Source of the DNA: Chlamydiales bacterium
Lineage (GTDB): Bacteria; Chlamydiota; Chlamydiia; Chlamydiales; VFKH01
Direction: 5' to 3'
DNA: 64,000 bases
Assembly: GCA_031292375.1 (NCBI GenBank)
Contig: JARLHF010000001.1
Location: forward strand, 10,960-74,959
The notes below the pieces were generated by a model. That model did no database searches. It was not told where the DNA came from and saw only the letters and a program-made list of their open reading frames with translations. A program made the position numbers and the translations under genes. Position 1 is the stretch's first letter; each line of letters opens with the position of its first letter. Shown here in pieces: positions 1 to 21,282 of this stretch.

Positions 1-422
1 ACCAACTGAAGAATGTGATCATTCTGGCCCAAATAGAAATTCACTCTTACATGAGAATACTCTTCTCGAAATCTCTTCAAATAGGCGGGAATTACAGCAA
101 GGGAAAAACTGTGTGTACAGGCAAATTCAAGATTCCCTATCTGAAAAGACTCTTCTTGGGACAAGTTCTGTTGAAATTGGCTAACCCTCTTTAAGAGATC
201 AATGGCCTCTTTAAAAACACTCAATCCTTGGGGGGTTGGTCTCAAACGATTTGGATGGTGAGCTAGAAGAGCCACTCCTAACGATTTTTCAAGCTTGGAA
301 ATCCCCTGACTAATAGCTGATTGAGTGACAAAATTCGCTTTTGCAGCGGCAGATAAACCACCTAATCGAATAGCATCGCAAAAATATTTGAGATTCACCA
401 AATTTAATATTTCTTCTTTCAT
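1..422 (-). CDS. LysR-family transcriptional regulator, N-terminal ~140 aa (3' part lies beyond the window start)
   Basis: Minus-strand translation from ATG (cat at 420-422) reads MKEEILNLVNLKYFCDAIRLGGLSAAAKANFVTQSAISQGISKLEKSLGVALL..., a canonical LysR wHTH. Absent from the ORF track because there is no stop in the window. Divergent from uhpC. Confidence 0.85.
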   Translation of the reverse strand, partial: MKEEILNLVNLKYFCDAIRLGGLSAAAKANFVTQSAISQGISKLEKSLGVALLAHHPNRLRPTPQGLSVFKEAIDLLKRVSQFQQNLSQEESFQIGNLEFACTHSFSLAVIPAYLKRFREEYSHVRVNFYLGQNDHILQL

Positions 423-443
423 AAGACATTAATTTATCTTAAG

Positions 444-479
444 CATGGATTAACATCTATTAATTTTTCTTAATCCATG
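444..479. promoter_or_regulatory. Inverted repeat CATGGATTAA-N16-TTAATCCATG in the LysR/uhpC divergent intergenic region (candidate LysR operator)
   Basis: Perfect 10-bp arms read directly at 444-453 and 470-479. The position between divergent genes is typical of LysR autoregulatory sites. Confidence 0.4.
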
Positions 480-518
480 GAGTCGTTTACAATTTGGACA
501 TCTAAACCAAGGTATCCA

Positions 519-1862
519 ATGAATTTATTATTTAAGAAGCTAAAGCCCGCTCCTCATCTCCCGGAAATAGCAAACACGGCAATAGTTAAAGAAAAATATA
601 ACTATTGGCGTATCCGCATTTTATATTCAATGTTCATTGGGTACGCTTTTTATTATTTCTCTAGAAAAAGCTTTGTGTTTGCCATGCCCGGCATTATGCA
701 AGAATTGCAATTGGACAAAAGTCAACTTGGCATTGTAAGCAGCATTTTTGCGCTTACTTATGGAATAAGCAAATTCGCGAGCGGTGTGCTATCAGATCAA
801 TCTAACCCTCGCTATTTCATGGCTTTTGGCCTTATTTGCTCTGGGATTCTAACTATTTTTGTTGGATTTTCTTCCTCTCTTTATCTATTTGCAATTTTAT
901 GGGGACTTAATGGCTGGTTCCAGGGATTTGGTTCGCCTCCTTGTGTGAGGCTTCTTTCGCACTGGTATTCTCATTCTGAGCGTGGCTCGTGGTGGTCAAG
1001 TTGGACGGTATCACAAAATGTAGGCGCTTTTTTGATCCCTTGGATCGCAGGAATTTGCCTGCACTATTACAATTGGCAATTGGCTATGTTTGCTCCGGGG
1101 CTTTTATGTATCTTGGGCGGTTTTTTCCTCATTAACCGTTTGGCGGACACCCCCCAATCTCTTGGGCTTCCTCCAATTGAAAAATTTCGCAATGACTATA
1201 TAAGTCAGAAGCGTAATGACCATGAAGAAGAAGAGCTGTCAACTCGATCGCTCCTCTTAAGCGTCTTAAAGAATAAATGCATCTGGATACTTGCTGTTGC
1301 CTATTTCTTTATTTACACTGTACGTGTTGGAATAGAGAGCTGGACAGCGCTTTTTATGATTGAATCGGAAGGGTATACCCCTATTTATGCCTGTGGCTTA
1401 GTCTCTCTTTTTGAAGTGGGCGGTTTTTTTGGAGGACTTTCCGTAGGTTGGATATCAGACCGTCTCTTTAATGCAAAACGAGGCCCTGTCAATGCCTTAT
1501 TTGCAATCGTTTTGCTAGTTTCAATCCTTAGTTTTTGGTCTATGCCAAAAGGATGTGCCTGGCTCAATTCCTCTGTCATGTTCATTATCGGCTTTGCCAC
1601 TTTCGGACCTCAAATGTTGATCGGGATTGCGGTCACAGAATTGGCTCACAAAAAGGCATCCGCAACAGCCAATGGTTTTGCAGGATGGGTAGCCTATATT
1701 GGCGCTGCATCCGCGGGATTCCCCCTTGGCAAAATCATTGATTATTTAGGCTGGAAAGGTTTTTTTCTCTCAATGATCCTCTGTTCAGGTATCTCCATTA
1801 CCCTGCTTCTGTGGAGCATGACCTTTTCCCTCAAAAAAGAGATGAGTCAAATTTCTCCTTAG
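519..1862 (+). CDS. uhpC: MFS sugar-phosphate antiporter, UhpC/GlpT family
   Basis: Track ORF 477..1862. Collinear by eye with E. coli UhpC (YWRIRILYSMFIGYAFYYFSRKSF, SDQSNPRYFM, FQGFGSPPCVRLL, GPQMLIG). The Met at 519 aligns best with the UhpC N-terminus; 477 is the alternative start. Confidence 0.85.
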   Translation: MNLLFKKLKPAPHLPEIANTAIVKEKYNYWRIRILYSMFIGYAFYYFSRKSFVFAMPGIMQELQLDKSQLGIVSSIFALTYGISKFASGVLSDQSNPRYFMAFGLICSGILTIFVGFSSSLYLFAILWGLNGWFQGFGSPPCVRLLSHWYSHSERGSWWSSWTVSQNVGAFLIPWIAGICLHYYNWQLAMFAPGLLCILGGFFLINRLADTPQSLGLPPIEKFRNDYISQKRNDHEEEELSTRSLLLSVLKNKCIWILAVAYFFIYTVRVGIESWTALFMIESEGYTPIYACGLVSLFEVGGFFGGLSVGWISDRLFNAKRGPVNALFAIVLLVSILSFWSMPKGCAWLNSSVMFIIGFATFGPQMLIGIAVTELAHKKASATANGFAGWVAYIGAASAGFPLGKIIDYLGWKGFFLSMILCSGISITLLLWSMTFSLKKEMSQISP

Positions 1863-1981
1863 AATCAAAGATATTTTTTAACTCTAGGTTTTCTTGTAAA
1901 TGCGTTTTAGATCTAAGACTCTTTTTCAGAATTCTTTGTGGTTGGCTTCCTCACGTAAATACTGTAACCTATTGTAATCAT

Positions 1982-2320
1982 ATGATATACACAAACAAGT
2001 TCAAGAATTATTTGTGTATAATTATTTTGATAGATGAAATAGTCGAACATTTACCAAGAGGACGCGCTTATCTTGCGGATCAACTTCAAAGAGCAGGTAC
2101 TTCAGTGCTTCTCAATATTGCTGAAGGTGCTGGAGAATACTCTAGTAATGAGAAAGCTCGATTTTATCGAATGGCAAAACGATCTGCAACAGGATGTGCA
2201 GCGATTTTTGATGTATGTATCCGTTTAAAATTAGCTAACGAAGAACAATATAAACGAGGAAGAGAGCTATTGGTGCATATAGTAGCAATGCTTACAAAAA
2301 TGACTCAAGCATATAGTTAA
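1982..2320 (+). CDS. Four-helix-bundle protein (23S rRNA intervening-sequence protein / S23p family), apparently lacking its native N-terminus
   Basis: The C-terminal ~95 aa (IVEHLPRGRAYLADQLQRAGTSVLLNIAEGAGEYSSNEKARFYRMAKRSATGCAAIFDVC...) match the family pattern (L.RA..SI..NIAEG......E...F...A.GS..E). The first codons after the ATG at 1982 are encoded by the repeat itself. The upstream part of track ORF 1811.. looks non-coding. Confidence 0.6.
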   Translation: MIYTNKFKNYLCIIILIDEIVEHLPRGRAYLADQLQRAGTSVLLNIAEGAGEYSSNEKARFYRMAKRSATGCAAIFDVCIRLKLANEEQYKRGRELLVHIVAMLTKMTQAYS

Positions 2321-2375
2321 GGGGATTAATCGGGCAATGGCACGTATAAACAATTCTTGAACTTGTTTGTGTATA
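1986..2375. mobile_element. TIR-bounded ~390-bp unit carrying a four-helix-bundle ORF (IVS-like element of the TACACAAACAAGTTCAAGAATT repeat family)
   Basis: Left end is TATACACAAACAAGTTCAAGAATTATTTGTGTATA (1986-2020). Right end is its inverted copy CAATTCTTGAACTTGTTTGTGTATA (2351-2375). The same termini bound the MITE at 23010-23171. TA dinucleotides sit on both flanks. Confidence 0.5.
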
Positions 2376-2514
2376 AATAATAACAGGGTAGACAGGATCA
2401 GCCGAAACGGCTAGCAGGATAGCCTTTGATTAAAAAAGCAATGTTTCTTAAAAAATGCTTTCTTGCCCTATCCTATCAGCCGTTTCGGCTGATCCTGTCT
2501 ACCCTGTTATTATT
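2376..2514. repeat. 139-bp palindromic element: perfect 37-bp inverted arms with a 65-bp partly self-complementary spacer
   Basis: AATAATAACAGGGTAGACAGGATCAGCCGAAACGGCT (2376-2412) is the exact reverse complement of 2478-2514. AGGATAG/CTATCCT extends the stem. Each arm also holds a mini-hairpin (AGCCG-AAA-CGGCT). It sits between convergent genes. Confidence 0.8.
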
Positions 2515-2544
2515 AATTATTTTAAAGTTTTTGCGTAACATAAG

Positions 2545-3339
2545 TTAAGAATAGAAATAATCGATTTCCTCATTTTTTTTAGGGCCGATTACCCTCCAAT
2601 TCAATCGAAGATTATACTGGTTAAAATGAATCTGCCCAAAATAAGTATCTCCTTCACAAAGATGCGAATCGACAGACGACAGGGAATGTTTATCAGAAGG
2701 CGCAAGGTGAAAAAGAAAAACAGGATGATCTGGACCTCGACGTAAATGTTCCAAAGAAATCACGCCAGCATTGCGATCTAAGGTCCAACGAAATATGTTG
2801 CTAAAACTGACCTCTCCACCCTGCTTGCCTTGCCAAGTCCCTTTTTCATTAAAGATTAACGTATTGGAACCATCCCTTAACATGACGACATCACCTTGAC
2901 CTTTCCCATTCCATCCTTTTTCTTCTTTAGATTTTGTCCTCGCATGGAAGGTAAGCTGAGTAATGCTCGTGAGCTTCTCCCAGAAAGCCAGGAGAATCTG
3001 AGCTTTATTTTCTTGATAGGCTGATGATGTTTTAAACCCCTCCTTTACAACATAGTATTCTTTCTTGTTATGGGCTGGAAGCAGAGTATATGCTTTTTTT
3101 AGCAACTGTTCAAGTTCGCTCATTAAGGGATAAGATGGGTTAAATTGATACAGACGAGTCTTTCCTTCATAATAGCTTGTAATGAGCCCACCTTTTTCCA
3201 AACGATTCAATGCCTTTTGAAGAGGTGTAAGCGATGTGTCAAGAGATCGATGCAATTGGGTCCCATAGCATTTTCCATTTACAAACAGGAAAATCAGGAT
3301 TCTTTGAACATTTTTGTTGCCGCATAAGACTTCAAGCAT
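2545..3339 (-). CDS. Winged-helix (MarR/ArsR-like) DNA-binding protein with an uncharacterised C-terminal domain; candidate regulator of the divergent bio operon
   Basis: N-terminus NVQRILIFLFVNGKCYGTQLHRSLDTSLTPLQKALNRLEKGGLITSYYEGKTRLYQFN is a wHTH pattern. The C-terminal ~150 aa has no recognised catalytic motif. ATG at 3339; the track start at 3348 is TTG. Confidence 0.55.
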   Translation of the reverse strand: MLEVLCGNKNVQRILIFLFVNGKCYGTQLHRSLDTSLTPLQKALNRLEKGGLITSYYEGKTRLYQFNPSYPLMSELEQLLKKAYTLLPAHNKKEYYVVKEGFKTSSAYQENKAQILLAFWEKLTSITQLTFHARTKSKEEKGWNGKGQGDVVMLRDGSNTLIFNEKGTWQGKQGGEVSFSNIFRWTLDRNAGVISLEHLRRGPDHPVFLFHLAPSDKHSLSSVDSHLCEGDTYFGQIHFNQYNLRLNWRVIGPKKNEEIDYFYS

Positions 3340-3367
3340 AAAAAACAACCTTCTTTCGAATTTTTAT

Positions 3368-3384
3368 AAACTACTTTTTAGTTT
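3368..3384. promoter_or_regulatory. Palindromic site AAACTA-N5-TAGTTT, copy 1
   Basis: AAACTACTTTTTAGTTT read directly. It lies inside a 24-bp direct repeat (TTTTATAAACTAYTTTTYTAGTTT) shared with 3449-3472. Confidence 0.4.
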
Positions 3385-3455
3385 TTCAGAATCGCATCAT
3401 TTCCTTCGATAAAATCAGAAAAAGATCCATTTCTAAACTATTTTCGATTTTTTAT

Positions 3456-3472
3456 AAACTATTTTCTAGTTT
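3456..3472. promoter_or_regulatory. Palindromic site AAACTA-N5-TAGTTT, copy 2
   Basis: AAACTATTTTCTAGTTT, about 30 bp upstream of the predicted bioB -35. An extra half-site AAACTA is at 3435-3440. Confidence 0.4.
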
Positions 3473-3501
3473 CAACAAGTCAATTTATGGATCATTTCCT
3501 A

Positions 3502-3530
3502 TTGAAAATAGTAAAAAACCAGGCTAAAAT
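3502..3530 (+). promoter_or_regulatory. Sigma-70-like promoter for the bio operon (TTGAAA-17 bp-TAAAAT)
   Basis: TTGAAA at 3502-3507 and TAAAAT at 3525-3530 with an exact 17-bp spacer. A GGAGG RBS precedes the bioB ATG at 3573. Confidence 0.4.
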
Positions 3531-3572
3531 CCATATTTCAAATACAAAACAGCTGAAATATGGGAGGCTTAA

Positions 3573-4544
3573 ATGTCTATCAGACATGACTGGACTATTG
3601 AAGAATTAAAACAATTATATGCAATGCCCCTTCTTGAACTCATTGCAAAATCCAATCTTTTTCACAATCAGTTCCATGAACCAACTCAAGTTCAAGTTTG
3701 TAGTCTAATCTCCATTAAAACAGGAGGATGCCCTGAAGATTGCAAATACTGCGCCCAGTCATCTCGTTATCAAACATCTGTCTCTGCTCAACTAATGATG
3801 CAATATAAGACCGTCCTCAATGAAGCAAAAAAAGCCGCTGAACGAGGGGCCACTCGAGTTTGCTTGGGAGCTGCCTGGAGAGAAGTGCGTGATAGCAAGC
3901 AATTTGAAGAAGTACTCCAAATGGTTAAAGGGGTTACCGATTTGGGTGTAGAAGTATGTTGTACTTTGGGAATGCTTAAAGAGAATCAAGCTGAGCAGCT
4001 TAAAGAAGCTGGACTATACGCCTATAATCATAACCTTGATTCCTCTGAAAAGTTTTATAAAACAGTCATTACGACACGAACTTATCAAGATCGGTTAAAT
4101 ACATTAGACATTGTCGAGAAAGCCAATTTAAACGTCTGTTGCGGTGGCATCTTAGGACTGGGAGAAGAGCCTATAGACCGACTAGAACTCCTACTAACGT
4201 TGTGCAGGCGAAATCCCCATCCTGAATCTGTCCCTATCAATCGATTAAGTCAAATTCCTGGCACACCCCTTGAAAATCAACCAAAAGTATCTATTTGGGA
4301 AATGGTCCGTGTCATTGCTGTGGCTCGCATCGTTTTACCTGAGGCAATGATTCGATTATCTTGTGGACGCATTGAAATGTCCTATGAGCAACAAGCATTA
4401 TGTTTTCTAGCTGGTGCCAATTCGATTTTTGCAGGCGAAAAGCTTTTAACAGTCGCCAATACTCCTGTTGACAAAGATGAGGAAATGTTCCAGCTCTTAG
4501 GCCTTAAGAAGCAACCTGCATTTGCCAAGGGCTACTCAAAATGA
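3573..4544 (+). CDS. bioB: Biotin synthase (radical SAM)
   Basis: [11 protein letters not shown] radical-SAM CxxxCxxC motif. Overall collinearity with BioB ([14 protein letters not shown]). Its stop overlaps the bioF start (ATGA). Confidence 0.95.
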
Positions 4545-5668
4545 CATTACATCTAGAAAATAGATTACAGAAACGCACAAAACTGGGAAATCTACGAACC
4601 TTAAAAATTACCCAGCCAATTATCGATTTTTCTTCTAATGACTACCTGGGGCTTGCTCGCTCCCCTCAACTAGCCACATCTGTTTTCCAAGAATGGGAAG
4701 CACACTTAAGCCATCTCAATGGGCTAGGATCAACAGGCTCTCGTTTACTGACAGGTAATTCGATCTACGCTCAAGAGTTAGAGGAGAAGATTGCCAAATT
4801 CCATGGCTACGAGGCAGGACTGCTATTCAGCTGTGGATATATGGCTAATGTAGGTCTTCTCTCAACAATTACAAGTCAAGAAAGTGTCATCTTCTTTGAT
4901 GCTGCAATACATGCTTCCACTCATGATGGGACCCGCTTAAGCCGAGCCAAAGCATTTCCTTTTAGGCATAATGATCTCAGGTCTCTTGAAAATCGCCTTA
5001 AAAGCTGCCTCTCTCAAAAAGATTGCTTTATTTGCATTGAATCCATCTATTCCACCGATGGTTCCATGGCCCCACTCACTGAAATCAGTCAACTTGCCAG
5101 AGAATATAAGGCTCATCTCATCGTAGATGAAGCTCACGCTGTAGGAGCTTGTGGACCACAAGGACGAGGTCTTGTCGCAGAACACAACCTTATGGCTCAT
5201 GTTTTTGCTCAAGTGACAACCTTTGGAAAAGCACTTGGCACTTACGGAGCCATTGTTCTTGGCAATCATACCTTAAAGCAAGCGCTCATCAATTTTGCAA
5301 CACCTTATATTTATACAACAGCTCTTCCCTTTCAAACACTTGCAGCCATCAAATGTAGCTACGATTTATTCCCGGAAATGTCTCAGGAACGAAATCAATT
5401 GCAAAAGCTCATTCAAATTTTTCGTGCATCCTATCCAAGTTCTTCTATGAGCCATATCCAATCTGTGTCAATTGAGGGAAACGAATCCATAAAGCAAGCA
5501 GCTCAAGCTATTATCAAAAAAGGATTTGATATAAGACCTCTCATGAGTCCAACAGTCCAGAGAGGACATGAAGTGCTCCGTGTCTGCCTACACGCTTTTA
5601 ATACAAATGATGAACTAGCACAGTTAATAAACAACATCCAACTCCATAGGAGTCCTTGCTATGCATAA
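4541..5668 (+). CDS. bioF: 8-amino-7-oxononanoate synthase
   Basis: PLP-dependent alpha-oxoamine synthase pattern: [32 protein letters not shown] (PLP lysine). Confidence 0.9.
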
Positions 5669-6290
5669 AATTATGGTAGCAGGAATAGGCACTGATGTGG
5701 GAAAAACGGTGGTTAGCACCGTCCTTGCTATTCTTTTGAATGGTGATTATTGGAAACCAATTCAATGTGGCGATGAGGAAAATTCTGATACCATTATGGT
5801 AAAAAGATGGCTCGATACAACGACACATACTATCCACCCACCTGCTTACTCTTTAAAGGCACCCTTATCACCTCATCAAGCAGCTCGCTTAGAAAACACT
5901 CTAATTAGGCTAGATTCCATCATCCTGCCACAAACAACACGTCCCTTGATCATCGAAGGCGTCGGCGGTATTCTTGTTCCTCTAACTCCAAAAATTTCTA
6001 GTATAGACCTGTTCAAATCCTGGGATTGTCAATGGATTATTGTTTCAAAGCATTATCTTGGTAGTATTAATCATACCCTTCTTACCATTGAAGTCTTAAA
6101 AAAGCTTTGCCTTCCTATCCTTGGCATCATTTTTAATGGAGAACACAACCCCGATAGCGAGTCCGCCATCTTAGAAATTTCACAAGTTTCTGTTTTAGGA
6201 AAACTACTTCCTGAAGCCAATTTAAACCCTCAAACCATTCAAAGGTATGCAAAACAATGGCAACCACTCTTTTCCAAACTCCTTCTTTAA
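5661..6290 (+). CDS. bioD: Dethiobiotin synthetase
   Basis: GTDVGKT P-loop at the N-terminus, IIEGVGG motif, ~209 aa, sits between bioF and bioA. Confidence 0.9.
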   Translation: MHKIMVAGIGTDVGKTVVSTVLAILLNGDYWKPIQCGDEENSDTIMVKRWLDTTTHTIHPPAYSLKAPLSPHQAARLENTLIRLDSIILPQTTRPLIIEGVGGILVPLTPKISSIDLFKSWDCQWIIVSKHYLGSINHTLLTIEVLKKLCLPILGIIFNGEHNPDSESAILEISQVSVLGKLLPEANLNPQTIQRYAKQWQPLFSKLLL

Positions 6291-7552
6291 TTGAAAAGGA
6301 TCGCGCTTGCATTTGGCATCCGTTTACTCAAATGCATATAGCACGTCCACCAATCCCTATCATTCGAGCTAAAGGCCCCTATCTTTATGCTGAAAATGGA
6401 AGTAGGTATTTGGATGCCATTTCCTCCTGGTGGGTCAATCTTCACGGACATGCTCACCCTTATATTATTGAGAAAATCAAATCTCAGGCCGAAGTATTAG
6501 AACATGTGATTTTTGCAGACTTTACTCATGCCCCAGCAGTTGAATTAGCATCTAAGCTCCTTTCGATCCTCCCTGGAGCTATGTCAAAAGTCTTCTATTC
6601 AGATAATGGATCAACAACCGTTGAGGTTGCCCTCAAAATAGCACTACAATATTGGCATAATCGCAACACTCCTAAGACAAAAATTATTTGCTTCAAAAAT
6701 AGCTACCACGGTGACACTTTTGGAGCCATGTCAGCTGCAGGGAGAAACGAATTCAATAGACCATTCTGGAAACATCTTTTTGATGTTGAGTCGATAGATC
6801 CGCCTCTAAAGGGCCAAGAAGATCTTTCTTTATTGCAACTTCGATCCATTCTAAATCAAGGCAACGTCGCTTGCTTTATTTTTGAGCCACTTGTGCTAGG
6901 ATCTGGAGGGATGATTATGTATCCACCACAGGGACTAGATAAACTCATCCAATGCTGTAGGCAATATCATGTTTTAACTATTGCTGATGAAGTCATGACA
7001 GGATTTGGTCGCACCGGAACTCTTTTTGCCTGCCAGCAGCTAACTGAAAATCCAGATCTTATTTGTTTATCCAAAGGACTAACAGGGGGCTTTTTACCGT
7101 TGGGAGTCACTGCTTGTACAGAAGAAATTTTTAATACCTTTTTGAGTGATCAGATTTCCCAAGCATTTCTTCATGGCCATTCTTACACAGCCAACCCTCT
7201 TGCCTGTAGTAGTGCTCTTGCTAGCCTTGACCTTCTCTTGGATAATAACTGTTCTCTACAAAGGGAGATGATTGAAGCTTGTCACCAAGATTTTTGTAAT
7301 CAATGGCGCTTTCATCCCAAACTAAAGCGGTGTGAACATCTTGGAACGATTTTAGCTTTGGAATACCAGACGAAAAGTCGTTCCTATTTTCAATCAATCC
7401 GTGATCGTCTCTATTATTTTTTCCTCAATAAAGGAATTTTGCTTCGTCCTTTAGGTAGCGTACTTTATGTGCTACCTCCTTATTGCATTCAAGCAAATGA
7501 ACTACAATTTATTTACGCTCAGATCATTCTCACTCTTGAAGAAAATTTATGA
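6257..7552 (+). CDS. bioA: Adenosylmethionine-8-amino-7-oxononanoate aminotransferase
   Basis: Class-III aminotransferase motifs: WHPFTQM, SWWVNLHGH, DEVMTGFGRTG, LSKGLTGG. Confidence 0.9.
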   Translation: MATTLFQTPSLIEKDRACIWHPFTQMHIARPPIPIIRAKGPYLYAENGSRYLDAISSWWVNLHGHAHPYIIEKIKSQAEVLEHVIFADFTHAPAVELASKLLSILPGAMSKVFYSDNGSTTVEVALKIALQYWHNRNTPKTKIICFKNSYHGDTFGAMSAAGRNEFNRPFWKHLFDVESIDPPLKGQEDLSLLQLRSILNQGNVACFIFEPLVLGSGGMIMYPPQGLDKLIQCCRQYHVLTIADEVMTGFGRTGTLFACQQLTENPDLICLSKGLTGGFLPLGVTACTEEIFNTFLSDQISQAFLHGHSYTANPLACSSALASLDLLLDNNCSLQREMIEACHQDFCNQWRFHPKLKRCEHLGTILALEYQTKSRSYFQSIRDRLYYFFLNKGILLRPLGSVLYVLPPYCIQANELQFIYAQIILTLEENL

Positions 7553-8223
7553 CTTCATTTACTTCTAACGCCTATCAAATTGAGCAGCTTCTAACTACTA
7601 TTGTTGCTTCCAATACGTTGCATGCTAAATGGCTCAATACTCTTTCTTTTCTTGAAAACTGCGGGGCTAGGAAAATCGCAGCTTGTGAGCATCCTACACT
7701 TGTAAAAGAAGAAATGCTTAAACATGCAGCAGAAGAATTTCGTCATGCCCATCATTTAAAGTGCCAGATTAAAAGAGTTTCCTCTAACCCAATGGACACC
7801 TATTCTCCTTTCTTTATGCTCGGAGAAGCTGCAGCTCTGCATTATTTGACAGCCTTAGACTTAAAAGCATCACGCTATCTTAAGATGCTCGGGCTTTCTA
7901 GGCATTCCATTAAAGAAGCAGCCTATCTACTTGTTACCTATGCAATAGAGCTTCGAGCTGACGAGCTTTACCCAATCTATGATAAGGTCCTTCGTAAAGC
8001 GGGTTCGCGTGTTGCAGTTAAATCCATCCTTTTAGAAGAAAAAGAACACCTCAATGAAATGAAAGAGGGATTGAAGCAACTTCCTTCAGGATTTACACAT
8101 GCAGCATATGTCTGTGCAATAGAGAGCGATTTATGCAAGCTGTGGCTGGCCGGAGTTGCCAAAAGTATACATCGAGTAATTCCCGCAGCAAAGAATTCCT
8201 CGATGTATAAACCAGTAGACTAA
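7549..8223 (+). CDS. Ferritin-like di-iron four-helix-bundle protein of unknown function, translationally coupled to bioA
   Basis: The start overlaps the bioA stop (ATGA). The sequence shows the E...ExxH...E...ExxH arrangement (LENCGARK, AAEEFRHAHH, AIELRADE, LLEEKEHL). Confidence 0.6.
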   Translation: MTSFTSNAYQIEQLLTTIVASNTLHAKWLNTLSFLENCGARKIAACEHPTLVKEEMLKHAAEEFRHAHHLKCQIKRVSSNPMDTYSPFFMLGEAAALHYLTALDLKASRYLKMLGLSRHSIKEAAYLLVTYAIELRADELYPIYDKVLRKAGSRVAVKSILLEEKEHLNEMKEGLKQLPSGFTHAAYVCAIESDLCKLWLAGVAKSIHRVIPAAKNSSMYKPVD

Positions 8224-8270
8224 AAGCCATAAGCCATTTATCATCCTACCCATAGCGGTTGGATAAAATA

Positions 8271-8723
8271 ATGGCGCGCGCCCAAGACATCAAAGTTTAC
8301 GAACAAAAACCAAATGATTTCTCACACAAAGTAGAAGTAGCTGCGACCTATGTAAACGTGAGGGGCAAGTTGTTATTACTAGAACTTTCCCATAATAAGT
8401 CTGAGGCTGGAGCTTGGGGTGTACCTGCAGGAAAGCTTGAAGAAAATGAAACCTCCTTAAACGGTGCCAAAAGAGAACTATTAGAAGAGACTAGTATTGA
8501 TGTTTCAAAAAATCAATTTCAATCATTCGGTCAGCTATATATTCGTAAACCAGATATTGATTACATCTATCACGTTTTCTCAGTTCGTTTAGCTAAGCTG
8601 CCGACTATCATCCTATCTTCTGAGCATTTATCATACAAGTGGGTCTCTTTGAAAGAGGCTGAAAACCTACCTTTGATGGATGGTGCACAGCAGGCCTTGG
8701 ACTTTTATTACCGGCACTTATAG
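8271..8723 (+). CDS. NUDIX hydrolase
   Basis: Intact Nudix box GKLEENETSLNGAKRELLEETSI (Gx5Ex7REUxEExGU). ATG at 8271; the track start at 8259 is TTG. Confidence 0.85.
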   Translation: MARAQDIKVYEQKPNDFSHKVEVAATYVNVRGKLLLLELSHNKSEAGAWGVPAGKLEENETSLNGAKRELLEETSIDVSKNQFQSFGQLYIRKPDIDYIYHVFSVRLAKLPTIILSSEHLSYKWVSLKEAENLPLMDGAQQALDFYYRHL

Positions 8724-8780
8724 TTTCTAAATGTGAGTAATTTATTGATTTAAATTTTCTGATATATTTTGATCAACGGT

Positions 8781-9650
8781 ATGAAAAAGAAACTTTTGCT
8801 AGGCTTGTTTGCAGTGATCATCGCAGTGATCGGTATTGTCATTGTATTGGCAAGTGAAAATGCTTTGGTAGTTCATCCTAAAGGGATAATTGCGAAAAGC
8901 CAACTAGAACTGATTATTACGAATATCATTCTCATGCTAATTATCATCGTTCCAACCTACCTCCTTTTATTTACAGTTGTATATAAATACTGCATCAAAA
9001 AAAAACATGCAAAATATAATCCAGATCACTCTTTTGGCCTTATTGGAGAGCTATTAATGTGGGGAGTTCCTTCCATTATAGTTGCTGTGATGGCTGTTGT
9101 GACATGGGATGCCACACATAAACTGAATCCCTATAAACCTATCGAGAGCGATATTAAACCACTTGCTGTGCAAGTCGTTGCTATGGATTGGAAATGGCTA
9201 TTTATTTATCCAGAGCAAGGTATTGCGGTATTAAATGATTTTCATATTCCAGAGAGAACTCCAATTCACTTGAAATTGGCAGCAGATGGTACACCGATGA
9301 ATTCATTTTGGATTCCGCAATTAAGTGGGCAAATATATTCTATGACGGGGATGACAACCCAGTTATACCTGATGGCGGATGGTCCGGGTGAATATAGAGG
9401 CAGAGCTGTTGAGATCAATGGGGAGGGCTATGCGGATATGACATTTCCCGTAACATCATCCTCTCAAGATGATTTTAATGCTTGGGTTACACAGGTAAAA
9501 AAATCATCTCTTTATTTAACCGAACAGACTTATAAAGAACTCGTCAAGCCTTCTGTGAATAAGGCCACCACTCCCTTTTCAGAAGTAGAAAAGGATCTAT
9601 TTGATAAAATAATTCAAAAATATATGTATCCAACCAAACCGGTATTATGA
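8781..9650 (+). CDS. cyoA: Cytochrome bo3-type quinol oxidase subunit II
   Basis: Collinear with CyoA (FWIPQLSGQIYSMTGMTTQLYL). It lacks the CuA Cys/His ligands, so it is a quinol rather than cytochrome c oxidase. N-terminal TM helices. The track start at 8769 is TTG. Confidence 0.85.
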   Translation: MKKKLLLGLFAVIIAVIGIVIVLASENALVVHPKGIIAKSQLELIITNIILMLIIIVPTYLLLFTVVYKYCIKKKHAKYNPDHSFGLIGELLMWGVPSIIVAVMAVVTWDATHKLNPYKPIESDIKPLAVQVVAMDWKWLFIYPEQGIAVLNDFHIPERTPIHLKLAADGTPMNSFWIPQLSGQIYSMTGMTTQLYLMADGPGEYRGRAVEINGEGYADMTFPVTSSSQDDFNAWVTQVKKSSLYLTEQTYKELVKPSVNKATTPFSEVEKDLFDKIIQKYMYPTKPVL

Positions 9651-11614
9651 AAGAATTCTTGCTTGGAAAATTGACTTTAGACGCAATTCCTCATGCCTGG
9701 AATACGATAGGAGGAACTTTTTTTATTATCATGCTAAGCATTGCAATTGCAGTGTACCTCACTAAAACCAAGCGTTGGAACTTTCTTTGGCATGAATGGC
9801 TCACATCTACCGATCCCAAAAAAATTGGGACCATGTACATGATCTTTTCATCTATAATGTTCTTTCGCGGGATGCTAGATGCAGGCATGGTATGGCTTCA
9901 GCAAGCCATTGCAGCAGATTCACAAGGATATCTTACTGCAGACCACTTCCAACAAATTTTTACATCGCATGGCGACATCATGGTTTTTTTCGTAACGATG
10001 GGCTTCTTTTTTGGACTCATGAACTGGATTATACCCCTTCAAATTGGTGCTCGTGACCTTGCTTTCCCGTTTGTGAATTCTTTAGGGTTCTGGCTCACTG
10101 TTGCTGGAGGACTACTTATTAACTTATTTTTTATCGTCGGAGGAGATTTTGCCAACACAGGCTGGCTTGCCATTGCCCCTTTCTCTGAGCTCGAATTTAA
10201 CCCAAGTGTTGGTGTTGATTACCTTATATGGAGTCTACAACTCTCTGGACTTGGTAGTCTACTTGCTGGAATTAATTTTCTCGTTACAATCATAAAAAAA
10301 CGAGCTCCAGGAATGACCTTAATGAAAATGCCTCTATTCACCTGGAATTCCTTGTGCGCAATGGTTCTTATTATTTCAGCCTTTCCAGTACTTACAGCAA
10401 CGACATTGCTTCTTTGGCTTGATCGTGCTTATGGAATGCATTTCTTTACAACAGGGTATTCTGGAAATCAAATGATGTATTGGAACCTCATTTGGATGTG
10501 GGGTCATCCAGAAGTTTATATTTTGGTTATACCTGCATTTGGCATGTTCTCGGAAATTGTCTCCACATTTTCTCAAAAAAAAGCTTCTGGATACGTTTCC
10601 ATGGTATTTGCAGCAATTACAATCACTGGCTTATCCTATCTAGTCTGGCTTCACCACTTTTTTGTTATGGGTGCAGGCCCGGATGTAAACTCTTTTTTTG
10701 GCATGGTAACAATGCTCATAGCAATACCTGCAGGCGTGCAAGTATTTAATTGGATACTTACTATGTATAAAGGAAAAATAAACTTAGCCTCTCCCATGTA
10801 TTGGTTCATCGGTTTTTTAATCTTATTCATGTTAGGAGGCATGGGAGGACTGTTTATGGCATCACCTCCTGCCGATTTTCAAGTGCACAACAGTTTATTC
10901 CTAGTTGCCCATTTCCATACAATGATTGTCGGAGTAGCTCTTTTTGGAATTTTTGCTGGCATCACTTTTTGGTTTCCTAAAATTTTTGGATTTAAACTTG
11001 ATGAACGACTAGACAAACAAGCTTTTTGGTGTTGGTTCATAGGATTTTTTGTAGCCTTTATCCCTCTCTATCTATTGGGGTTCATGGGAGCGCCAAGGCG
11101 TATTGATCACTATGACTCCTCAACTGGATGGCAGCCCTTATATATCACTGCAGCAATTGGGTTTGTCATCATTTCATGCGGAATTGCCACTCAAGTTTAT
11201 CTGTTTATCAAAAGCATTAGGCAAAGAAAACAACACAGGGATACTACAGGAGATCCTTGGAATGGCAGAACGCTTGAATGGGCAACTCATTCCCCACCTC
11301 CATTTTATAATTTTGCAGTAATCCCTTCTATTACAAGTCATGAGGCCTTTTGGGAGATGAAAAAACAGGGCCTGAAGCCAGAAAAAAACTATCACGATAT
11401 CGAGTGTTTTAAAAACACAGGTATGGGGATCTATATATCCTGTTTTGCTTTCTTAGTAGGATTTGCAATTGTCTGGCATATTATTTGGCTCATCGTTGTA
11501 GGTCTCCTTGGAGTCATTGCTTGCATCATCATTCTTTCTTTTAATGATGAAATGGAATATGTACTACCCGCTGCAGAAGTTGCCAAAATTGAACAATCTT
11601 ACCTCAAGAAGTGA
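9647..11614 (+). CDS. cyoB: Quinol oxidase subunit I (heme-copper oxidase)
   Basis: WGHPEVYILVIPAFGMFSE, HFHTMIVG and other HCO subunit I signatures. 655 aa. Confidence 0.95.
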   Translation: MKEFLLGKLTLDAIPHAWNTIGGTFFIIMLSIAIAVYLTKTKRWNFLWHEWLTSTDPKKIGTMYMIFSSIMFFRGMLDAGMVWLQQAIAADSQGYLTADHFQQIFTSHGDIMVFFVTMGFFFGLMNWIIPLQIGARDLAFPFVNSLGFWLTVAGGLLINLFFIVGGDFANTGWLAIAPFSELEFNPSVGVDYLIWSLQLSGLGSLLAGINFLVTIIKKRAPGMTLMKMPLFTWNSLCAMVLIISAFPVLTATTLLLWLDRAYGMHFFTTGYSGNQMMYWNLIWMWGHPEVYILVIPAFGMFSEIVSTFSQKKASGYVSMVFAAITITGLSYLVWLHHFFVMGAGPDVNSFFGMVTMLIAIPAGVQVFNWILTMYKGKINLASPMYWFIGFLILFMLGGMGGLFMASPPADFQVHNSLFLVAHFHTMIVGVALFGIFAGITFWFPKIFGFKLDERLDKQAFWCWFIGFFVAFIPLYLLGFMGAPRRIDHYDSSTGWQPLYITAAIGFVIISCGIATQVYLFIKSIRQRKQHRDTTGDPWNGRTLEWATHSPPPFYNFAVIPSITSHEAFWEMKKQGLKPEKNYHDIECFKNTGMGIYISCFAFLVGFAIVWHIIWLIVVGLLGVIACIIILSFNDEMEYVLPAAEVAKIEQSYLKK

Positions 11615-12204
11615 GCGATATAATGGAAGTAAGCAAAATAAGTGATGTAAGCGAAACAAAAGTATTTGGGTTTTGGGTCTATTTAATGACCGATCTTGTC
11701 ATTTTTGCTGTACTTTTTGCCTGTTTCATTGTTTTGCATAACAATACTTTTGGAGGCCCCAGCGCAAAAGAGCTATTTCATCTACCATCTATGCTAGCAG
11801 AAACACTCATCTTGCTTACTAGCAGCTTTACCTGTTCTCTGGCAATGCTTGCAGTTCGCAGAGGATTAAAAAACTTAAGCATCATCTGGTTCATCATCAC
11901 GTTTCTTTTGGGAGTGTCCTTTCTCTGCATCGAAATTTCAGAATTTACAGATTTTGTAGAAAGAGGAGCCAGTTGGCAGCGCAGCGCCTTTCTCTCCTCA
12001 TTTTTTACATTAGTAGGCACACATGGATTCCATATCTCTGTAGGACTATTGTGGATGCTTGTAATGCTATTTCGCATCGCTTTTCGCCCCCTCTCAAAGC
12101 ATAGTGTCTCCAGGATTTTTCGCATGGCCCTTTTTTGGCACTTCCTCGACTTTGTTTGGATCTTTATTTTTACCGTTGTATATGGAATGGGATATTTGTT
12201 ATGA
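11611..12204 (+). CDS. cyoC: Quinol oxidase subunit III
   Basis: KVFGFWVYLMTDLVIFAVLFA matches the CyoC N-terminus. Five TM segments. The GTG at 11611 overlaps the cyoB stop; the alternative ATG is at 11623. Confidence 0.9.
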   Translation: MSDIMEVSKISDVSETKVFGFWVYLMTDLVIFAVLFACFIVLHNNTFGGPSAKELFHLPSMLAETLILLTSSFTCSLAMLAVRRGLKNLSIIWFIITFLLGVSFLCIEISEFTDFVERGASWQRSAFLSSFFTLVGTHGFHISVGLLWMLVMLFRIAFRPLSKHSVSRIFRMALFWHFLDFVWIFIFTVVYGMGYLL

Positions 12205-12503
12205 ATCATGAACTATCATTACGCATCACAGGCTTTATTACAGCTCTCCTATTAACTCTTGCAGCCTACTTTATTATTTTACATCCAGAGCTTTTTAACT
12301 TTAACGTTAAAATAGCTATCATCGTCATTTTTACTCTTGCTCTCATTCAGTCTCTTGTTCAGCTCATCTTTTTTATCAATGTATGGAAAGAAAAAGGCCC
12401 TCTTTGGAACTTAGGTATTTTTATTTCTACCGTTTTCATCATCTTTATTATCATCTTCTTTTCTATCTGGATCATCGACCACCTCAATTACAATATGCGA
12501 TGA
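12201..12503 (+). CDS. cyoD: Quinol oxidase subunit IV
   Basis: 100-aa, 3-TM protein. Its ATG overlaps the cyoC stop (ATGA). The track ORF 12135.. extends spuriously upstream inside cyoC. Confidence 0.8.
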   Translation: MNHELSLRITGFITALLLTLAAYFIILHPELFNFNVKIAIIVIFTLALIQSLVQLIFFINVWKEKGPLWNLGIFISTVFIIFIIIFFSIWIIDHLNYNMR

Positions 12504-15259: not shown

Positions 15260-16933
15260 ATGAAAAAACCACTTCCTATTGGAATTAGCGACTTCAAAAA
15301 AATAATTGACGGAGGCTATGCTTATGTCGATAAAACTCTTTTGATCCAAGAGATCATAGAAAGAGGAACTCACGTTGCTCTCATTCCTCGTCCACGCCGC
15401 TTTGGCAAGACACTCAATCTTTCAATGTTACGTTATTTCTTTGAAAAGACAGCAGAAGACACGAGCTATCTATTTAAAAATTTAAATATTTGGAATAACG
15501 AAAAGTATAAAAGCCTGCAAGGACAATTCCCTGTTGTTTCGATCTCTCTCAAAGATGTAAAGCACATCTCTTGGGAAGAGAGCTTTAAAGTATTGCACAC
15601 ACTCATTGCCAAGGAAATGGAGAGGCATCATTATATCTTAGAAGTCCTAACAATAAGGGAGAAAGAACTTTATCATAAAATTCTCTCAGAAGAGAACAAC
15701 AAACCTTTAATTGAACAAAGCCTACTTCTAATCACAGAATGGCTGCATCGCTACCATGCCAAGCAAGTTATTCTCTTGATCGATGAGTATGATACTCCAG
15801 CCCATGCAGCTTACATTGGAAACTATTACAATACCTTTATCGACTTTATCCGCAACTGGCTTTCAGCAGGCTTAAAAGATAATGTGCATTTAGAGCGAGG
15901 TATTCTTACTGGTATTCTACGCATTGCAAAAGAGAGCATTTTTTCAGGATTAAATAACATTAGTACCTTTACAATATTAAATGAACCATTTAGTGATAAA
16001 TTCGGATTGTTAGAATCAGAGGTAAAAGAACTTTTAAAAAATCATGCCCTTTCTGATAAACTTCCTGAAATTAGTCAATGGTACAATGGTTACCGTATGG
16101 GATCTTGTACAGGAATTCATAATCCTTGGTCTGTTTTACAATGCATTGCTGAAAATGGTGCTTTATCTCCTTACTGGGTAAATACAAGTGATAATGCGCT
16201 TATGAAACATCTCATTGCTAAAGGAACTGATGATCTAAAAGCAGATATCGAGGAGCTTCTTAGAGGCGGTATTGTAGAAAAAACGATCGAAGATGGCGTT
16301 ATATTTCCAGGCCTCGAGCAAGACCCAAGTAGCATATGGTCTTTACTTCTATACAGCGGCTATTTAACAATTGACACAACCCCCTCTTATGGTGTTCCAT
16401 GCCAATTAAAGATTCCTAATATCGAAGTATCTGAACTCTATAAAACAATGATCTTAGATTGGTTTAAAACCAGCATTCATGAACATAAATATCGTATGCT
16501 CCTAAATAGCCTTGTCAGCGGTGATATTGACACTTTTTCTCAACTTTTTAAAGAATTTATGATCTCATCCGCAAGTGTTTTTGACGTATCCGCTGAAGAA
16601 TCTGAAAAAATTTATCATGCATTTATTTTGGGTATGTTAGTTGGGCTCAAAGATCAATATGAAGTTAAATCAAATCGTGAAAGTGGCCTTGGTAGGTATG
16701 ACGTCATGCTCATCCCTAAAAATACAAATGATTTAGGAATTATCATGGAATTCAAGAAGGTTGGTCGTTTTGAAGAAATTGACTTAGAAAAAGCTGTTCT
16801 TGCTGCCTTAAAACAAATAGAAGACAAACAGTACGCTCAAGAACTTCTTGATCGCGGTGTAAGCCGTATTTTGTATCTTGGGTTTGCCTTTGAAGGCAAA
16901 CGCGTTCTCATCCGTTCAAAAATTAAAACTTAA
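15260..16933 (+). CDS. Predicted AAA-ATPase-like / PD-(D/E)XK nuclease family protein (AAA-ATPase_like + DUF1703 architecture)
   Basis: N-terminus LPIGISDFKKIIDGGYAYVDKTLLIQEII...RPRRFGKTLNLSML is the signature of this family. The C-terminus GRYDVMLIP...IMEFK fits a PD-(D/E)XK core. Confidence 0.7.
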   Translation: MKKPLPIGISDFKKIIDGGYAYVDKTLLIQEIIERGTHVALIPRPRRFGKTLNLSMLRYFFEKTAEDTSYLFKNLNIWNNEKYKSLQGQFPVVSISLKDVKHISWEESFKVLHTLIAKEMERHHYILEVLTIREKELYHKILSEENNKPLIEQSLLLITEWLHRYHAKQVILLIDEYDTPAHAAYIGNYYNTFIDFIRNWLSAGLKDNVHLERGILTGILRIAKESIFSGLNNISTFTILNEPFSDKFGLLESEVKELLKNHALSDKLPEISQWYNGYRMGSCTGIHNPWSVLQCIAENGALSPYWVNTSDNALMKHLIAKGTDDLKADIEELLRGGIVEKTIEDGVIFPGLEQDPSSIWSLLLYSGYLTIDTTPSYGVPCQLKIPNIEVSELYKTMILDWFKTSIHEHKYRMLLNSLVSGDIDTFSQLFKEFMISSASVFDVSAEESEKIYHAFILGMLVGLKDQYEVKSNRESGLGRYDVMLIPKNTNDLGIIMEFKKVGRFEEIDLEKAVLAALKQIEDKQYAQELLDRGVSRILYLGFAFEGKRVLIRSKIKT

Positions 16934-17594
16934 TCAAATGATGAGCTTCTAAAAAAGTGCTCTTGTTATAAGCATCATTCCAAAAATGCCATTCTAATAA
17001 AGAGCTATACATAAAGGCATTTTTCATGCTCTCTAATGTATTTACAGAGCACTTACTTGCTGTTTTATCTAGTATGGATATGGCCAAATCAGTTCCTCTT
17101 GAAAATTCCTGACTAGAATAAGTCTCTATCCAAAGCATGTAAGGGTTTTCTTCTTTAGCATATGCAGCTATATGCCTTCCTACTTCCCTATAAATCCAAA
17201 AACAGGGTAGCACTGCTGCAATAGCCTCTTCCAATGAAGCAGTTGACGCCGTTGAAATAAGGTAGTGAGTATAAGACATACAAAACACAGAAGGCTCAAT
17301 CGTATCGCAAGTATAATTTGGAGCCAAAAATTTGGCATGTAGTTCACGCTCTGCAACGAGAGCTCCCAGTGCAAAATTCAAAAACTGATGAATCATTTCT
17401 GAAGAGCTTGCCCTACCTGCAATGAGCGCAAGCGCCCTAGAAAAGCTCTTTAAATAGTAAGCATCTTGCTCCATATAAAAAAGGAATCTCGATCTCTCTA
17501 ATGTTCCCTCAGCAAGTTCCCTATTAAAGGGATGATTTATAATTCTTTGATAAATGGGAAAAGTTTGCTGCCAAAGATCACTAGAAAACGTCAT
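16923..17594 (-). CDS. tenA: Thiaminase II / aminopyrimidine aminohydrolase (TenA family)
   Basis: LWQQTFPIYQRIINHPFNRELAEGTLERSRFLFYMEQDAYYL is a typical TenA N-terminus. The Met at 17594 sits 1 nt beyond the thiD stop; the track start at 17627 lies inside thiD. Confidence 0.85.
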   Translation of the reverse strand: MTFSSDLWQQTFPIYQRIINHPFNRELAEGTLERSRFLFYMEQDAYYLKSFSRALALIAGRASSSEMIHQFLNFALGALVAERELHAKFLAPNYTCDTIEPSVFCMSYTHYLISTASTASLEEAIAAVLPCFWIYREVGRHIAAYAKEENPYMLWIETYSSQEFSRGTDLAISILDKTASKCSVNTLESMKNAFMYSSLLEWHFWNDAYNKSTFLEAHHLIKF

Positions 17595-17595
17595 A

Positions 17596-18396
17596 TTAAA
17601 AGCTCCAAAAATGATGAACAGGACCATTTCCCTGACCTATTCTCAAGGATGCACCTGCACTAATTGCTTGTGTAAGATATTCTTTAGCCCTCTGAACGGA
17701 CTCATGAATAGAAAAACCTTTTGCTAGAAATGCAGCTATCGCAGCTGAAAGCGTACACCCTGTCCCATGTGTATTTTGTGTCGAGATTCTTTTACTTGAA
17801 AACCAATGAATCTGCTTATTTGAATTTTTCAAACATAAACAATCTGAGCAATCAGCGTCTAAATGCCCTCCCTTTACAAGCACTGCCAAAGGACCCATCT
17901 CAATCAAATCCAAAGCTGCTTTTTCCATTTGGGCTTTATTTTGAATCTTTCTTCCTAAAAGCCTTGAAGCTTCCATCAAATTGGGGGTCAACACCGTTGT
18001 AATCGGGAAAAGGCGCTCTTTCATAGTAGCAATGGCATCTGGTTGTAAAAGCACATCACCACTTTTTGCAACCATAACTGGATCAAGAACAATGCAATTC
18101 ACACCATACTGACACAAAATATTCACAACACTATCAACAATGTCCTTGCGATACAACATTCCTATTTTTACAGTATCTATACAAATATCATCTAAAATGG
18201 CTTTAATTTGTTCTTCTATACACTGAAGCGATACATCATAAACTGATCTAACTCCAATAGTATTTTGAACTGGAATAGCTGTCAAAACAGTTGTTCCATA
18301 ACATCCCAAAGCTGAAAATGTTTTAAGATCTGCTTGAATACCAGCACCCGCACTTCCATCAAAACCTGCAATTGTAAGTACTTTATAAAGCCCCAT
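17596..18396 (-). CDS. thiD: Hydroxymethylpyrimidine / phosphomethylpyrimidine kinase
   Basis: VLTIAGFDGSAGAGIQADLKTFSALG..., GTGCTLSAAIAA. Ribokinase-fold ThiD pattern. Confidence 0.9.
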   Translation of the reverse strand: MGLYKVLTIAGFDGSAGAGIQADLKTFSALGCYGTTVLTAIPVQNTIGVRSVYDVSLQCIEEQIKAILDDICIDTVKIGMLYRKDIVDSVVNILCQYGVNCIVLDPVMVAKSGDVLLQPDAIATMKERLFPITTVLTPNLMEASRLLGRKIQNKAQMEKAALDLIEMGPLAVLVKGGHLDADCSDCLCLKNSNKQIHWFSSKRISTQNTHGTGCTLSAAIAAFLAKGFSIHESVQRAKEYLTQAISAGASLRIGQGNGPVHHFWSF

Positions 18397-19027
18397 ACGC
18401 CTCCATTTTTTTCCCCATCATAGTAGCTGCATTTACAGGGCAATTTGCATCAAAAATTGCAGAAACTACAGCTACTCCTGCAACACCACATTCCAAAACT
18501 TCATCTACATTTGTCTTGTTTATACCACCAATTGCAATCATTGGATGGAAAGAAATAGAACATGCATATCTCAAATCGTCTAGTCTCCAATAAGTACTAC
18601 AATCACTTTTTGTCTTTGTAAAAAACACAGGACTTGCAGCAAGATAATTCACATCCTCATTTTGAGCTTCTATGACATGAGTTATATTCTCTACAGATAA
18701 TCCAATAATTGCTCGTTTACCAAGAATTTTTCTTGCTTCAGACACCTTTACATCAGACTGACCTAAATGAACTCCATCTGCATCTACCACATGAGCCACA
18801 TCTACATTGTCATTAATGATTAATGGAACACTCATTGGCTTTAAAATAAGTTGTAGTTTTTTTGCAAGAGCCACAAATTCATGAGCTGAAATCCCCTTTT
18901 CTCTCAATTGAACGATTTTTACACCACCCTTAATAGCTTTATGGATAATTCTAAAAAAATCTTCCAACTCAAGACCTACTCGATTGGTAACTAAATAAAG
19001 TGATAAATCCAATGGATATCTATTCAT
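18383..19027 (-). CDS. thiE: Thiamine-phosphate synthase
   Basis: LYLVTN, VQLREK, DGVHLGQ, IAIGGI motifs. Overlaps thiD and thiM. Confidence 0.9.
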   Translation of the reverse strand: MNRYPLDLSLYLVTNRVGLELEDFFRIIHKAIKGGVKIVQLREKGISAHEFVALAKKLQLILKPMSVPLIINDNVDVAHVVDADGVHLGQSDVKVSEARKILGKRAIIGLSVENITHVIEAQNEDVNYLAASPVFFTKTKSDCSTYWRLDDLRYACSISFHPMIAIGGINKTNVDEVLECGVAGVAVVSAIFDANCPVNAATMMGKKMEAYGAL

Positions 19028-21191: not shown

Positions 21192-21218
21192 ATTGCTCTC
21201 CTTAGTTATAAGCATTAC

Positions 21219-21234
21219 ATACATATATATGTAT
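21219..21234. promoter_or_regulatory. 16-bp perfect palindrome ATACATATATATGTAT upstream of arsM (candidate ArsR operator / promoter)
   Basis: Read directly, about 28 bp upstream of the arsM ATG. The arsM-arsR operon is expected to be autoregulated. Confidence 0.35.
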
Positions 21235-21282
21235 AAACGAATATGCAAATAAGATCAACATAAATTCATCACATATATAGAC

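Follow-up and report, generated by a model that had tools for sequence, protein, structure and literature searches.

A predicted BioE-type di-iron oxygenase encoded in the biotin operon of an environmental chlamydia, with a candidate regulator gene at its promoter end

Introduction

Where does an environmental chlamydia carrying the late genes of biotin biosynthesis obtain the pimeloyl moiety for this vitamin? This question is raised by a 64,000-nucleotide stretch of a Chlamydiales bacterium genome (GenBank assembly GCA_031292375.1, contig JARLHF010000001.1, positions 10,960 to 74,959; hereafter the window), in which a tightly coupled bioB-bioF-bioD-bioA operon, with a fifth open reading frame (ORF) at its end, spans positions 3573-8223. 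BioF is the enzyme which uses the pimeloyl thioester, and an original prediction made from the DNA letters had proposed that the fifth ORF, called bioE below, encodes the enzyme which provides it. On the basis of orthology and gene context, which together support this activity, the encoded protein is very probably a functional BioE supplying the pimeloyl moiety for biotin.

The source of pimelate in chlamydiae had been a gap from at least 2012, when an analysis of chlamydial genomes reported neither known pimeloyl-coenzyme A (CoA) pathways nor known biotin regulators or their sites (PMC3459881), until December 2025, when two papers described BioE, a ferritin-like di-iron oxygenase (PMC12704756, PMC12915131). 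It has been shown that BioE from Elizabethkingia and Chryseobacterium (EmBioE and CiBioE) is a ferritin-like non-heme di-iron oxygenase which cuts C14, C16 and C18 acyl chains, carried by CoA or by acyl carrier protein (ACP), at C7-C8, and that it complements E. coli strains devoid of a pimelate pathway; EmBioE contains about two Fe per monomer and requires O2 and a reducing system (PMC12704756). From C14-C18 acyl-ACP, the products of BioE are pimeloyl-ACP and a Cn-7 acid (PMC12704756; PMC12915131). Most Chlamydia species carry bioE inside the bio cluster, and the chlamydial enzyme, CpBioE, is monomeric, holds about 2 Fe, makes pimeloyl-ACP from C14-C18 acyl-ACP, not from stearoyl-CoA, and rescues E. 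coli bioH mutants under aerobic conditions only (PMC12915131). Mutation of E41, E68, H71, E140, E170 or H173 inactivates CpBioE, complementation being abolished, as does mutation of eleven hydrophobic residues of its acyl pocket, namely W33, L37, L40, I48, L105, V135, I139, L146, Y147, Y150 and L205 (PMC12915131). The novelty that had been suggested for the missing pimeloyl step has thus been overtaken by these publications, Chlamydia included.

The fifth gene of the biotin operon

Successive genes of the run from bioB to bioE overlap one another by 4 to 34 bases (Table 1). The upstream genes are those which had been predicted: BioB, BioD and BioA score above the curated TIGR cut-offs, and BioF matches TIGR00858 below its cut-off. 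The 224-residue ORF and its ATGA overlap on bioA were likewise found in the sequence, the ATG of bioE (7549-7551) overlapping the TGA stop of bioA (7550-7552). This ORF is a real, conserved gene, because its product has many homologues: 1698 sequences were found in one database (E<=1e-3), and a second one gave 540 clusters (50% identity). The product is 100% identical to P4L16_00100, a "hypothetical protein" of a Chlamydiales metagenome-assembled genome (MAG).

The translated protein carries E36, E63-x-x-H66, E134 and E164-x-x-H167, which is the E...ExxH...E...ExxH ligand pattern noted in the original prediction, and these six residues are conserved across the family alignments. An alignment of 65 diverse members, 27-52% identical to the window protein, has H66 and E164 in every sequence, and the other four (E36, E63, E134 and H167) reach at least 90% conservation. 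In a second alignment of eight sequences (C. psittaci, C. pneumoniae, Chlamydia sp. 17-3921, Bergeyella of the Weeksellaceae, two Sphingobacterium, a Bacteroidota MAG and the window protein), all six ligands are invariant among the named Chlamydiaceae and Bacteroidota members, and the relatives are 45-51% identical to the window protein, the Bacteroidota ones 45-50%.

Scans of the bioE ORF against Pfam and NCBIfam release 20 gave no match, the sole Pfam match at E<=1 being COQ7 (0.011), and a phmmer search of its product against PDB sequences returned nothing meaningful. Against the PDB, the family profile best matched a cyanobacterial aldehyde decarbonylase (aldehyde-deformylating oxygenase, cADO), with a marginal E of 0.028 and with the E and ExxH motifs aligned. 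The AlphaFold2 (AF2) model of the window protein is all-helical (pLDDT 80.6), and Foldseek gave a low TM of about 0.4 to an ADO-like protein. The authors of the BioE work also named cADO as the nearest solved structure (PMC12704756). BioE and cADO (e.g., PDB 5uwz) are both ferritin-like di-iron enzymes which act on long acyl chains, and their second-half E and ExxH motifs align; cADO, in contrast, takes C1 off an aldehyde, whereas BioE cuts C7-C8 of a thioester.

Across the family, weak Pfam matches to Rubrerythrin, COQ7 and AurF were obtained, and some database records call relatives "rubrerythrin family" or "bacterioferritin". Such names would suit an accessory iron protein which supplies Fe to, or repairs, the Fe-S clusters of BioB, or a rubrerythrin-like peroxide scavenger protecting BioB, and mycobacteria do have BioB auxiliary proteins (BsaP, cited in the BioE literature). 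The window protein, however, has no rubredoxin domain and possesses the conserved hydrophobic acyl pocket, and its orthologues both rescue strains lacking the pimelate pathway and produce pimeloyl-ACP in vitro, which makes an accessory role extremely unlikely.

Orthology to the characterized BioE enzymes

The BioE of Chlamydia sp. 17-3921 (locus L065) served as the query to find Chlamydiaceae orthologues. The C. psittaci protein P0295 (219 aa) starts with MLTSTITT and ends with IEKTCRV, which is exactly what the pBAD24-CpbioE primers encode. In a BLASTP comparison, the window protein is 54% identical to P0295 over 197 residues (E 7e-65), and E36, E63, H66, E134, E164 and H167 align with E41, E68, H71, E140, E170 and H173 of CpBioE. 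Ten of the eleven acyl-pocket residues are identical (W28, L32, L35, I43, L100, V129, I133, L140, Y141 and Y144 in the window numbering), the lone exception in the pairwise alignment being W199, which replaces L205 of CpBioE. Judged from these alignments, the window protein is a clear orthologue of the characterized chlamydial BioE. The two proteins are from the same phylum, have similar lengths, are encoded after bioA and have no BioL gene nearby. They differ in that the source of the window protein is an environmental chlamydia outside the Chlamydiaceae, and in that the window operon is accompanied by a divergent gene and palindromes, described below, which are both absent from the Chlamydiaceae locus L065.

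In Table S2 of PMC12915131, the CpbioE cloning primers and one mutagenesis primer set encode the C. psittaci protein (P0295), and the ligand-mutant primers (E41A, E68A, H71A, E140A, E170A and H173A) encode the C. pneumoniae sequence (cf. P0288), e.g., TLSFLENSGAKKISASEHPT and RHGHYLKTQISR. Since the C. psittaci and C. pneumoniae BioEs share residue numbering, the conclusions drawn here are unaffected by this mismatch.

EmBioE was compared through fragments decoded from published mutagenesis primers and through named Weeksellaceae and Sphingobacteriaceae relatives. The window protein agrees with the decoded fragments HAKWLNTLSFMENAGARKIS and YLFVTYAIEVRADELYPVYQEAL at 17/20 and 17/23 positions, respectively. 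EmBioE and CiBioE belong to the same family (the EmBioE ligands, all of them essential as in CpBioE, being E26, E53, H56, E125, E155 and H158) and, like the window gene, are linked to late bio genes (PMC12704756). EmBioE, a homodimer which accepts both CoA and ACP substrates, is repressed by the MocR-type regulator BioL and sits in a bioEFD unit, whereas the window order is bioBFDA-bioE without BioL. The window protein is 49% identical to C. pneumoniae P0288 and 50% identical to Bergeyella P0389; the environmental enzyme thus resembles the BioEs of Chlamydiaceae and of Bacteroidota to about the same degree, which is a new observation.

Conservation of the gene neighborhood

The neighborhood of bioE was scanned in one genome per species, giving 72 loci in which neighbors were located by tblastn with the window proteins. 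These loci are nearly all from Chlamydiota MAGs (Parachlamydiaceae, Rhabdochlamydiaceae, Waddliaceae, Criblamydia-like and Neptunochlamydia), with a few labelled Verrucomicrobia and one Chlamydia species. In 69 of them, bioE comes right after bioA, often with the same overlap as in the window, and the full bioB-F-D-A set is usually present. The neighborhood conservation which the original prediction had proposed to test is therefore strong. The exceptions to the bioA-bioE order are L023, a locus cut by a contig end, L003 and L062. L003 (7881-10642) has the order regulator-bioB-bioE, with bioFDA missing in between, and is the sole locus in which bioE comes straight after bioB.

In the window itself, all ORFs of at least 100 aa, minus the last 183 codons of a 5083-aa ORF, were scanned against Pfam or NCBIfam. 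In agreement with the earlier statement that the window encodes no BioC/BioH, BioI/BioW or BioZ, none of the scanned ORFs encodes BioC, a BioH-type hydrolase, BioI or another P450, BioW or a FabH-like BioZ. The window's only methyltransferase (20316-21248), considered as a BioC candidate, was rejected: it is ArsM, encoded next to arsR (arsR-arsM pair at 19988-21248, minus strand), with 349 bits against NF008823 (cut-off 263) and 62 bits against BioC (cut-off 185).

Downstream of bioE, a NUDIX hydrolase gene (8259-8723) begins after 36 bp, and no terminator-like site was seen between the two genes in a scan of 3200-9000. It was considered as a sixth operon member and rejected, its position not being conserved in the other loci: a NUDIX homologue follows bioE in just one of them (L056). 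Beyond the NUDIX gene lies cyoABCD (8769-12503, plus strand), the complete operon of a cytochrome bo3 quinol oxidase, which shows an oxygen-using lifestyle; the organism therefore uses O2, as the O2-dependent BioE requires.

Proposed function of the window protein

By analogy with the characterized enzymes, we infer the same activity for the window protein and a preference for ACP. In such a mechanism, E36, E63/H66, E134 and E164/H167 would hold two iron ions and, with O2 and an electron donor, the enzyme would oxidize an ACP-bound C14-C18 acyl chain in a multistep reaction, cleaving C7-C8 and releasing pimeloyl-ACP and a free Cn-7 fatty acid. BioF would then condense the pimeloyl thioester with alanine, after which BioA, BioD and BioB would complete biotin. 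The bioE gene would be translationally coupled to bioA and co-transcribed with the other genes from a conserved promoter upstream of bioB. The original prediction had put forward such an O2-dependent di-iron cleavage of a longer acyl-ACP into pimeloyl-ACP, analogous to BioI; this is the published activity of BioE, and its assignment here is supported by orthology and synteny. The P450 BioI of Bacillus subtilis also performs an O2-dependent C7-C8 cleavage of long acyl-ACP to provide the pimeloyl moiety, an analogous outcome reached with an unrelated fold and cofactor, BioI being a heme-thiolate P450.

Several observations weigh against this assignment. Pfam and NCBIfam (June 2026) have no model for the BioE family and, hence, no curated cut-off can be applied. 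The reported carrier-contact residues are mixed: F34 is common to CpBioE and EmBioE, R41 and K42 are EmBioE-like, and L97, H98 and T101 match neither enzyme (relative to CpBioE, K46 is replaced by R41, K102 by L97, Y103 by H98 and D106 by T101). Because of this mixture, the preference for ACP or CoA cannot be predicted from the window sequence. Finally, the homologue in L062 (9962-10615, 53% identity) has no bio genes within 10 kb and may be either a paralogue with another lipid-oxidizing role or a relocated bioE. The genes around it encode a TauD-like dioxygenase, two methyltransferases, a DsbB-like protein and lipid A acyltransferase-like proteins.

The lipid-type surroundings of this homologue, and the chemical versatility of ferritin-like di-iron enzymes, suggest an alternative in which the window protein is a BioE-family paralogue with another product, resulting from a cut at another chain length or from desaturation or hydroxylation of acyl-ACP, and does not supply pimelate. 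The window gene, in contrast, occupies the canonical place after bioA, as do its relatives in nearly all loci, its product keeps the acyl pocket of the characterized enzyme at all positions except one, and no other pimelate source can be seen in the window. A paralogue of this kind is, thus, very unlikely, and pimeloyl-ACP formation is by far the favored function.

A divergent winged-helix/DUF6314 gene and its palindromes

Upstream of bioB and divergent from it lies a gene for a 264-residue candidate regulator, whose start at the ATG at 3339 is backed by listed homologues of about 264 aa with 75-90% identity. Its N-terminus is an ArsR-like winged helix, with profile matches which include Rv1994c and with a TMt of about 0.7 to SqrR and HlyU in Foldseek. 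Its C-terminus is a DUF6314 domain (PF19834), modelled by AF2 as a helix and a roughly ten-stranded barrel, whose best PDB matches in Foldseek are nitrobindin and M. tuberculosis Rv2717c and Rv0813 (TMt of about 0.5).

Two perfect palindromes, AAACTA-N5-TAGTTT, each inside a 38-nt direct repeat, stand in the 233-bp intergenic region, and these palindromes are, with the TTGAAA-17-TAAAAT hexamers, the conserved blocks across 12 aligned intergenic regions. A search of the window and the 72 loci (1.23 Mb), allowing at most one mismatch, returned 70 matches to the palindrome, 62 of which, the perfect ones all among them, are located no more than 450 bp upstream of bioB. Such bioB-upstream palindromes occur in 41 of the scanned sequences, with two sites in 20 of them. 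Neither the regulator gene nor the palindrome was found in the Chlamydiaceae locus L065.

The association extends beyond these genomes. The regulator adjoins bioB in 45 of 61 genome loci and, in a metagenome search performed from the regulator side (54 loci with at least 700 bp upstream), the divergent neighbor is bioB in 35 loci and bioY in 7 (PF02632, E 1e-30 to 6e-34), the regulator-bioY intergenic regions bearing the same palindrome type. Such a gene, found beside biotin synthesis or biotin transport genes and with one site common to both, has the classical hallmarks of a pathway regulator. In two of the metagenome loci, L116 (1341-2786) and L117 (1348-2882), the gene after bioY carries a BPL_N domain (PF09825, 3e-41 and 1.5e-11, respectively). 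BPL_N is the N-terminal domain of eukaryote-type biotin-protein ligase.

The features of the operon and of its upstream region are collected in Table 1.

Table 1. Positions in the window of the biotin operon, the divergent candidate regulator gene and the sites between them
Feature	Position	Strand	Evidence or remark
bioB, biotin synthase, first operon gene	3573..4544	+	TIGR00433 378 bits, cut-off 225
bioF, 8-amino-7-oxononanoate synthase	4541..5668	+	TIGR00858 7e-100 (below cut-off); PF00155 (Aminotran_1_2) 7.6e-47; operon position conserved
bioD, dethiobiotin synthase	5661..6290	+	TIGR00347 112 bits, cut-off 83; PF13500 1.6e-54
bioA, adenosylmethionine-8-amino-7-oxononanoate transaminase	6257..7552	+	TIGR00508 525 bits, cut-off 405
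bioE, ferritin-like di-iron oxygenase, predicted pimeloyl-ACP maker	7549..8223	+	orthology to C. psittaci P0295, ligands, synteny
candidate regulator, 264 aa, winged helix and DUF6314 barrel	2545..3339	-	PF19834 5.9e-11; homologues; AF2/Foldseek
palindrome O1 AAACTACTTTTTAGTTT, candidate operator	3368..3384	.	starts 29 bp upstream of regulator ATG
palindrome O2 AAACTATTTTCTAGTTT, candidate operator	3456..3472	.	30 bp upstream of bioB -35; overlaps minus-strand promoter-like site
promoter-like element TTGAAA-17-TAAAAT upstream of bioB	3502..3530	+	best match in 3200-9000 scan, 10/12 positions

These data slightly favor the view that the winged-helix/DUF6314 protein represents a new family of biotin regulators in environmental chlamydiae, which would bind AAmCTA-N5-TAGkTT at bioBFDA-bioE and at bioY and whose barrel would sense biotin or an intermediate. 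The sign of such a regulation is left ambiguous because the sites lie upstream of the bioB -35 element and on top of a putative minus-strand promoter: the protein could be a repressor, an activator or a pure autoregulator, autoregulation being the only effect that the geometry directly suggests. This geometry would also suit an autoregulated factor which responds to another signal, such as a lipid or heme, and which lies beside bioB by chance. Nitrobindin-like barrels bind heme or lipids and, in 12 of the 54 metagenome loci, no bio gene stands beside the regulator. In the other 42, however, the neighbor is bioB or bioY, two genes with unrelated biotin functions, and the same palindrome type is present in both kinds of intergenic region. 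The concentration of the motif upstream of bioB across 1.23 Mb also argues against a chance association, and a signal foreign to biotin is, thus, a possible, less probable explanation than the control of biotin genes.

As for known regulators, no MocR-type BioL gene is adjacent to the operon, where the sole regulator is the 264-aa protein, which lacks an aminotransferase domain. BioL was thus ruled out as the regulator of the operon and, because no MocR-type regulator is adjacent, the window belongs to the BioL-less chlamydial arrangement; BioL is also absent from Chlamydia (PMC12915131). Like BirA (class II), BioR (GntR), BioQ (TetR) and BioL (MocR), the candidate is encoded beside bio genes and has palindromes in bio promoter regions. 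Unlike them, it has no ligase, GntR, TetR or aminotransferase domain. No mention of DUF6314, or of such a regulator, was found in the literature searched.

Other genes of the window

Elsewhere in the window, a 4'-phosphopantetheinyl transferase gene (28504-29247, plus strand) is followed by the gene of a 5083-aa non-ribosomal peptide synthetase (29195-44446, plus strand), with an N-terminal formyltransferase, four adenylation, three condensation and four carrier domains and a C-terminal reductase, an enzyme which is unusual for a chlamydial genome. A thiamine salvage and synthesis cluster (16923-19835, minus strand) encodes a TenA-family protein, ThiD (phosphomethylpyrimidine kinase), ThiE (TMP synthase) and ThiM (hydroxyethylthiazole kinase). 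The plus strand also encodes a 23S rRNA-intervening-sequence-type protein (PF05635, 1811-2320) and a predicted AAA-ATPase/PD-(D/E)XK nuclease protein (15260-16933).

Implications for biotin metabolism in Chlamydiota

The function of BioE having already been established for orthologues, what is new here is the unannotated bioE orthologue itself and its lineage, since environmental chlamydiae are unmentioned in the BioE papers (PMC12704756, PMC12915131). In this respect, the finding adds a member and not a principle. It also shows that, with bioBFDA-bioE in about 70 species-level genomes, the BioE solution is the rule across environmental Chlamydiota, beyond the pathogenic genus. Members of the family are still annotated as hypothetical proteins, rubrerythrins or bacterioferritins, and recognizing bioE corrects metabolic reconstructions in which these organisms are counted as biotin auxotrophs.

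The winged-helix/DUF6314 gene, with its candidate operators, may be new and is a more useful lead than bioE itself. It has been reported that uncontrolled BioE is toxic in Elizabethkingia, and both this toxicity and the lack of a known biotin regulator in chlamydial genomes would be consistent with a dedicated regulator in environmental chlamydiae. If its role is as proposed, this protein would join BirA, BioR, BioQ and BioL as a fifth type of bacterial biotin regulator and would do in chlamydiae what BioL does for BioE in Bacteroidota.

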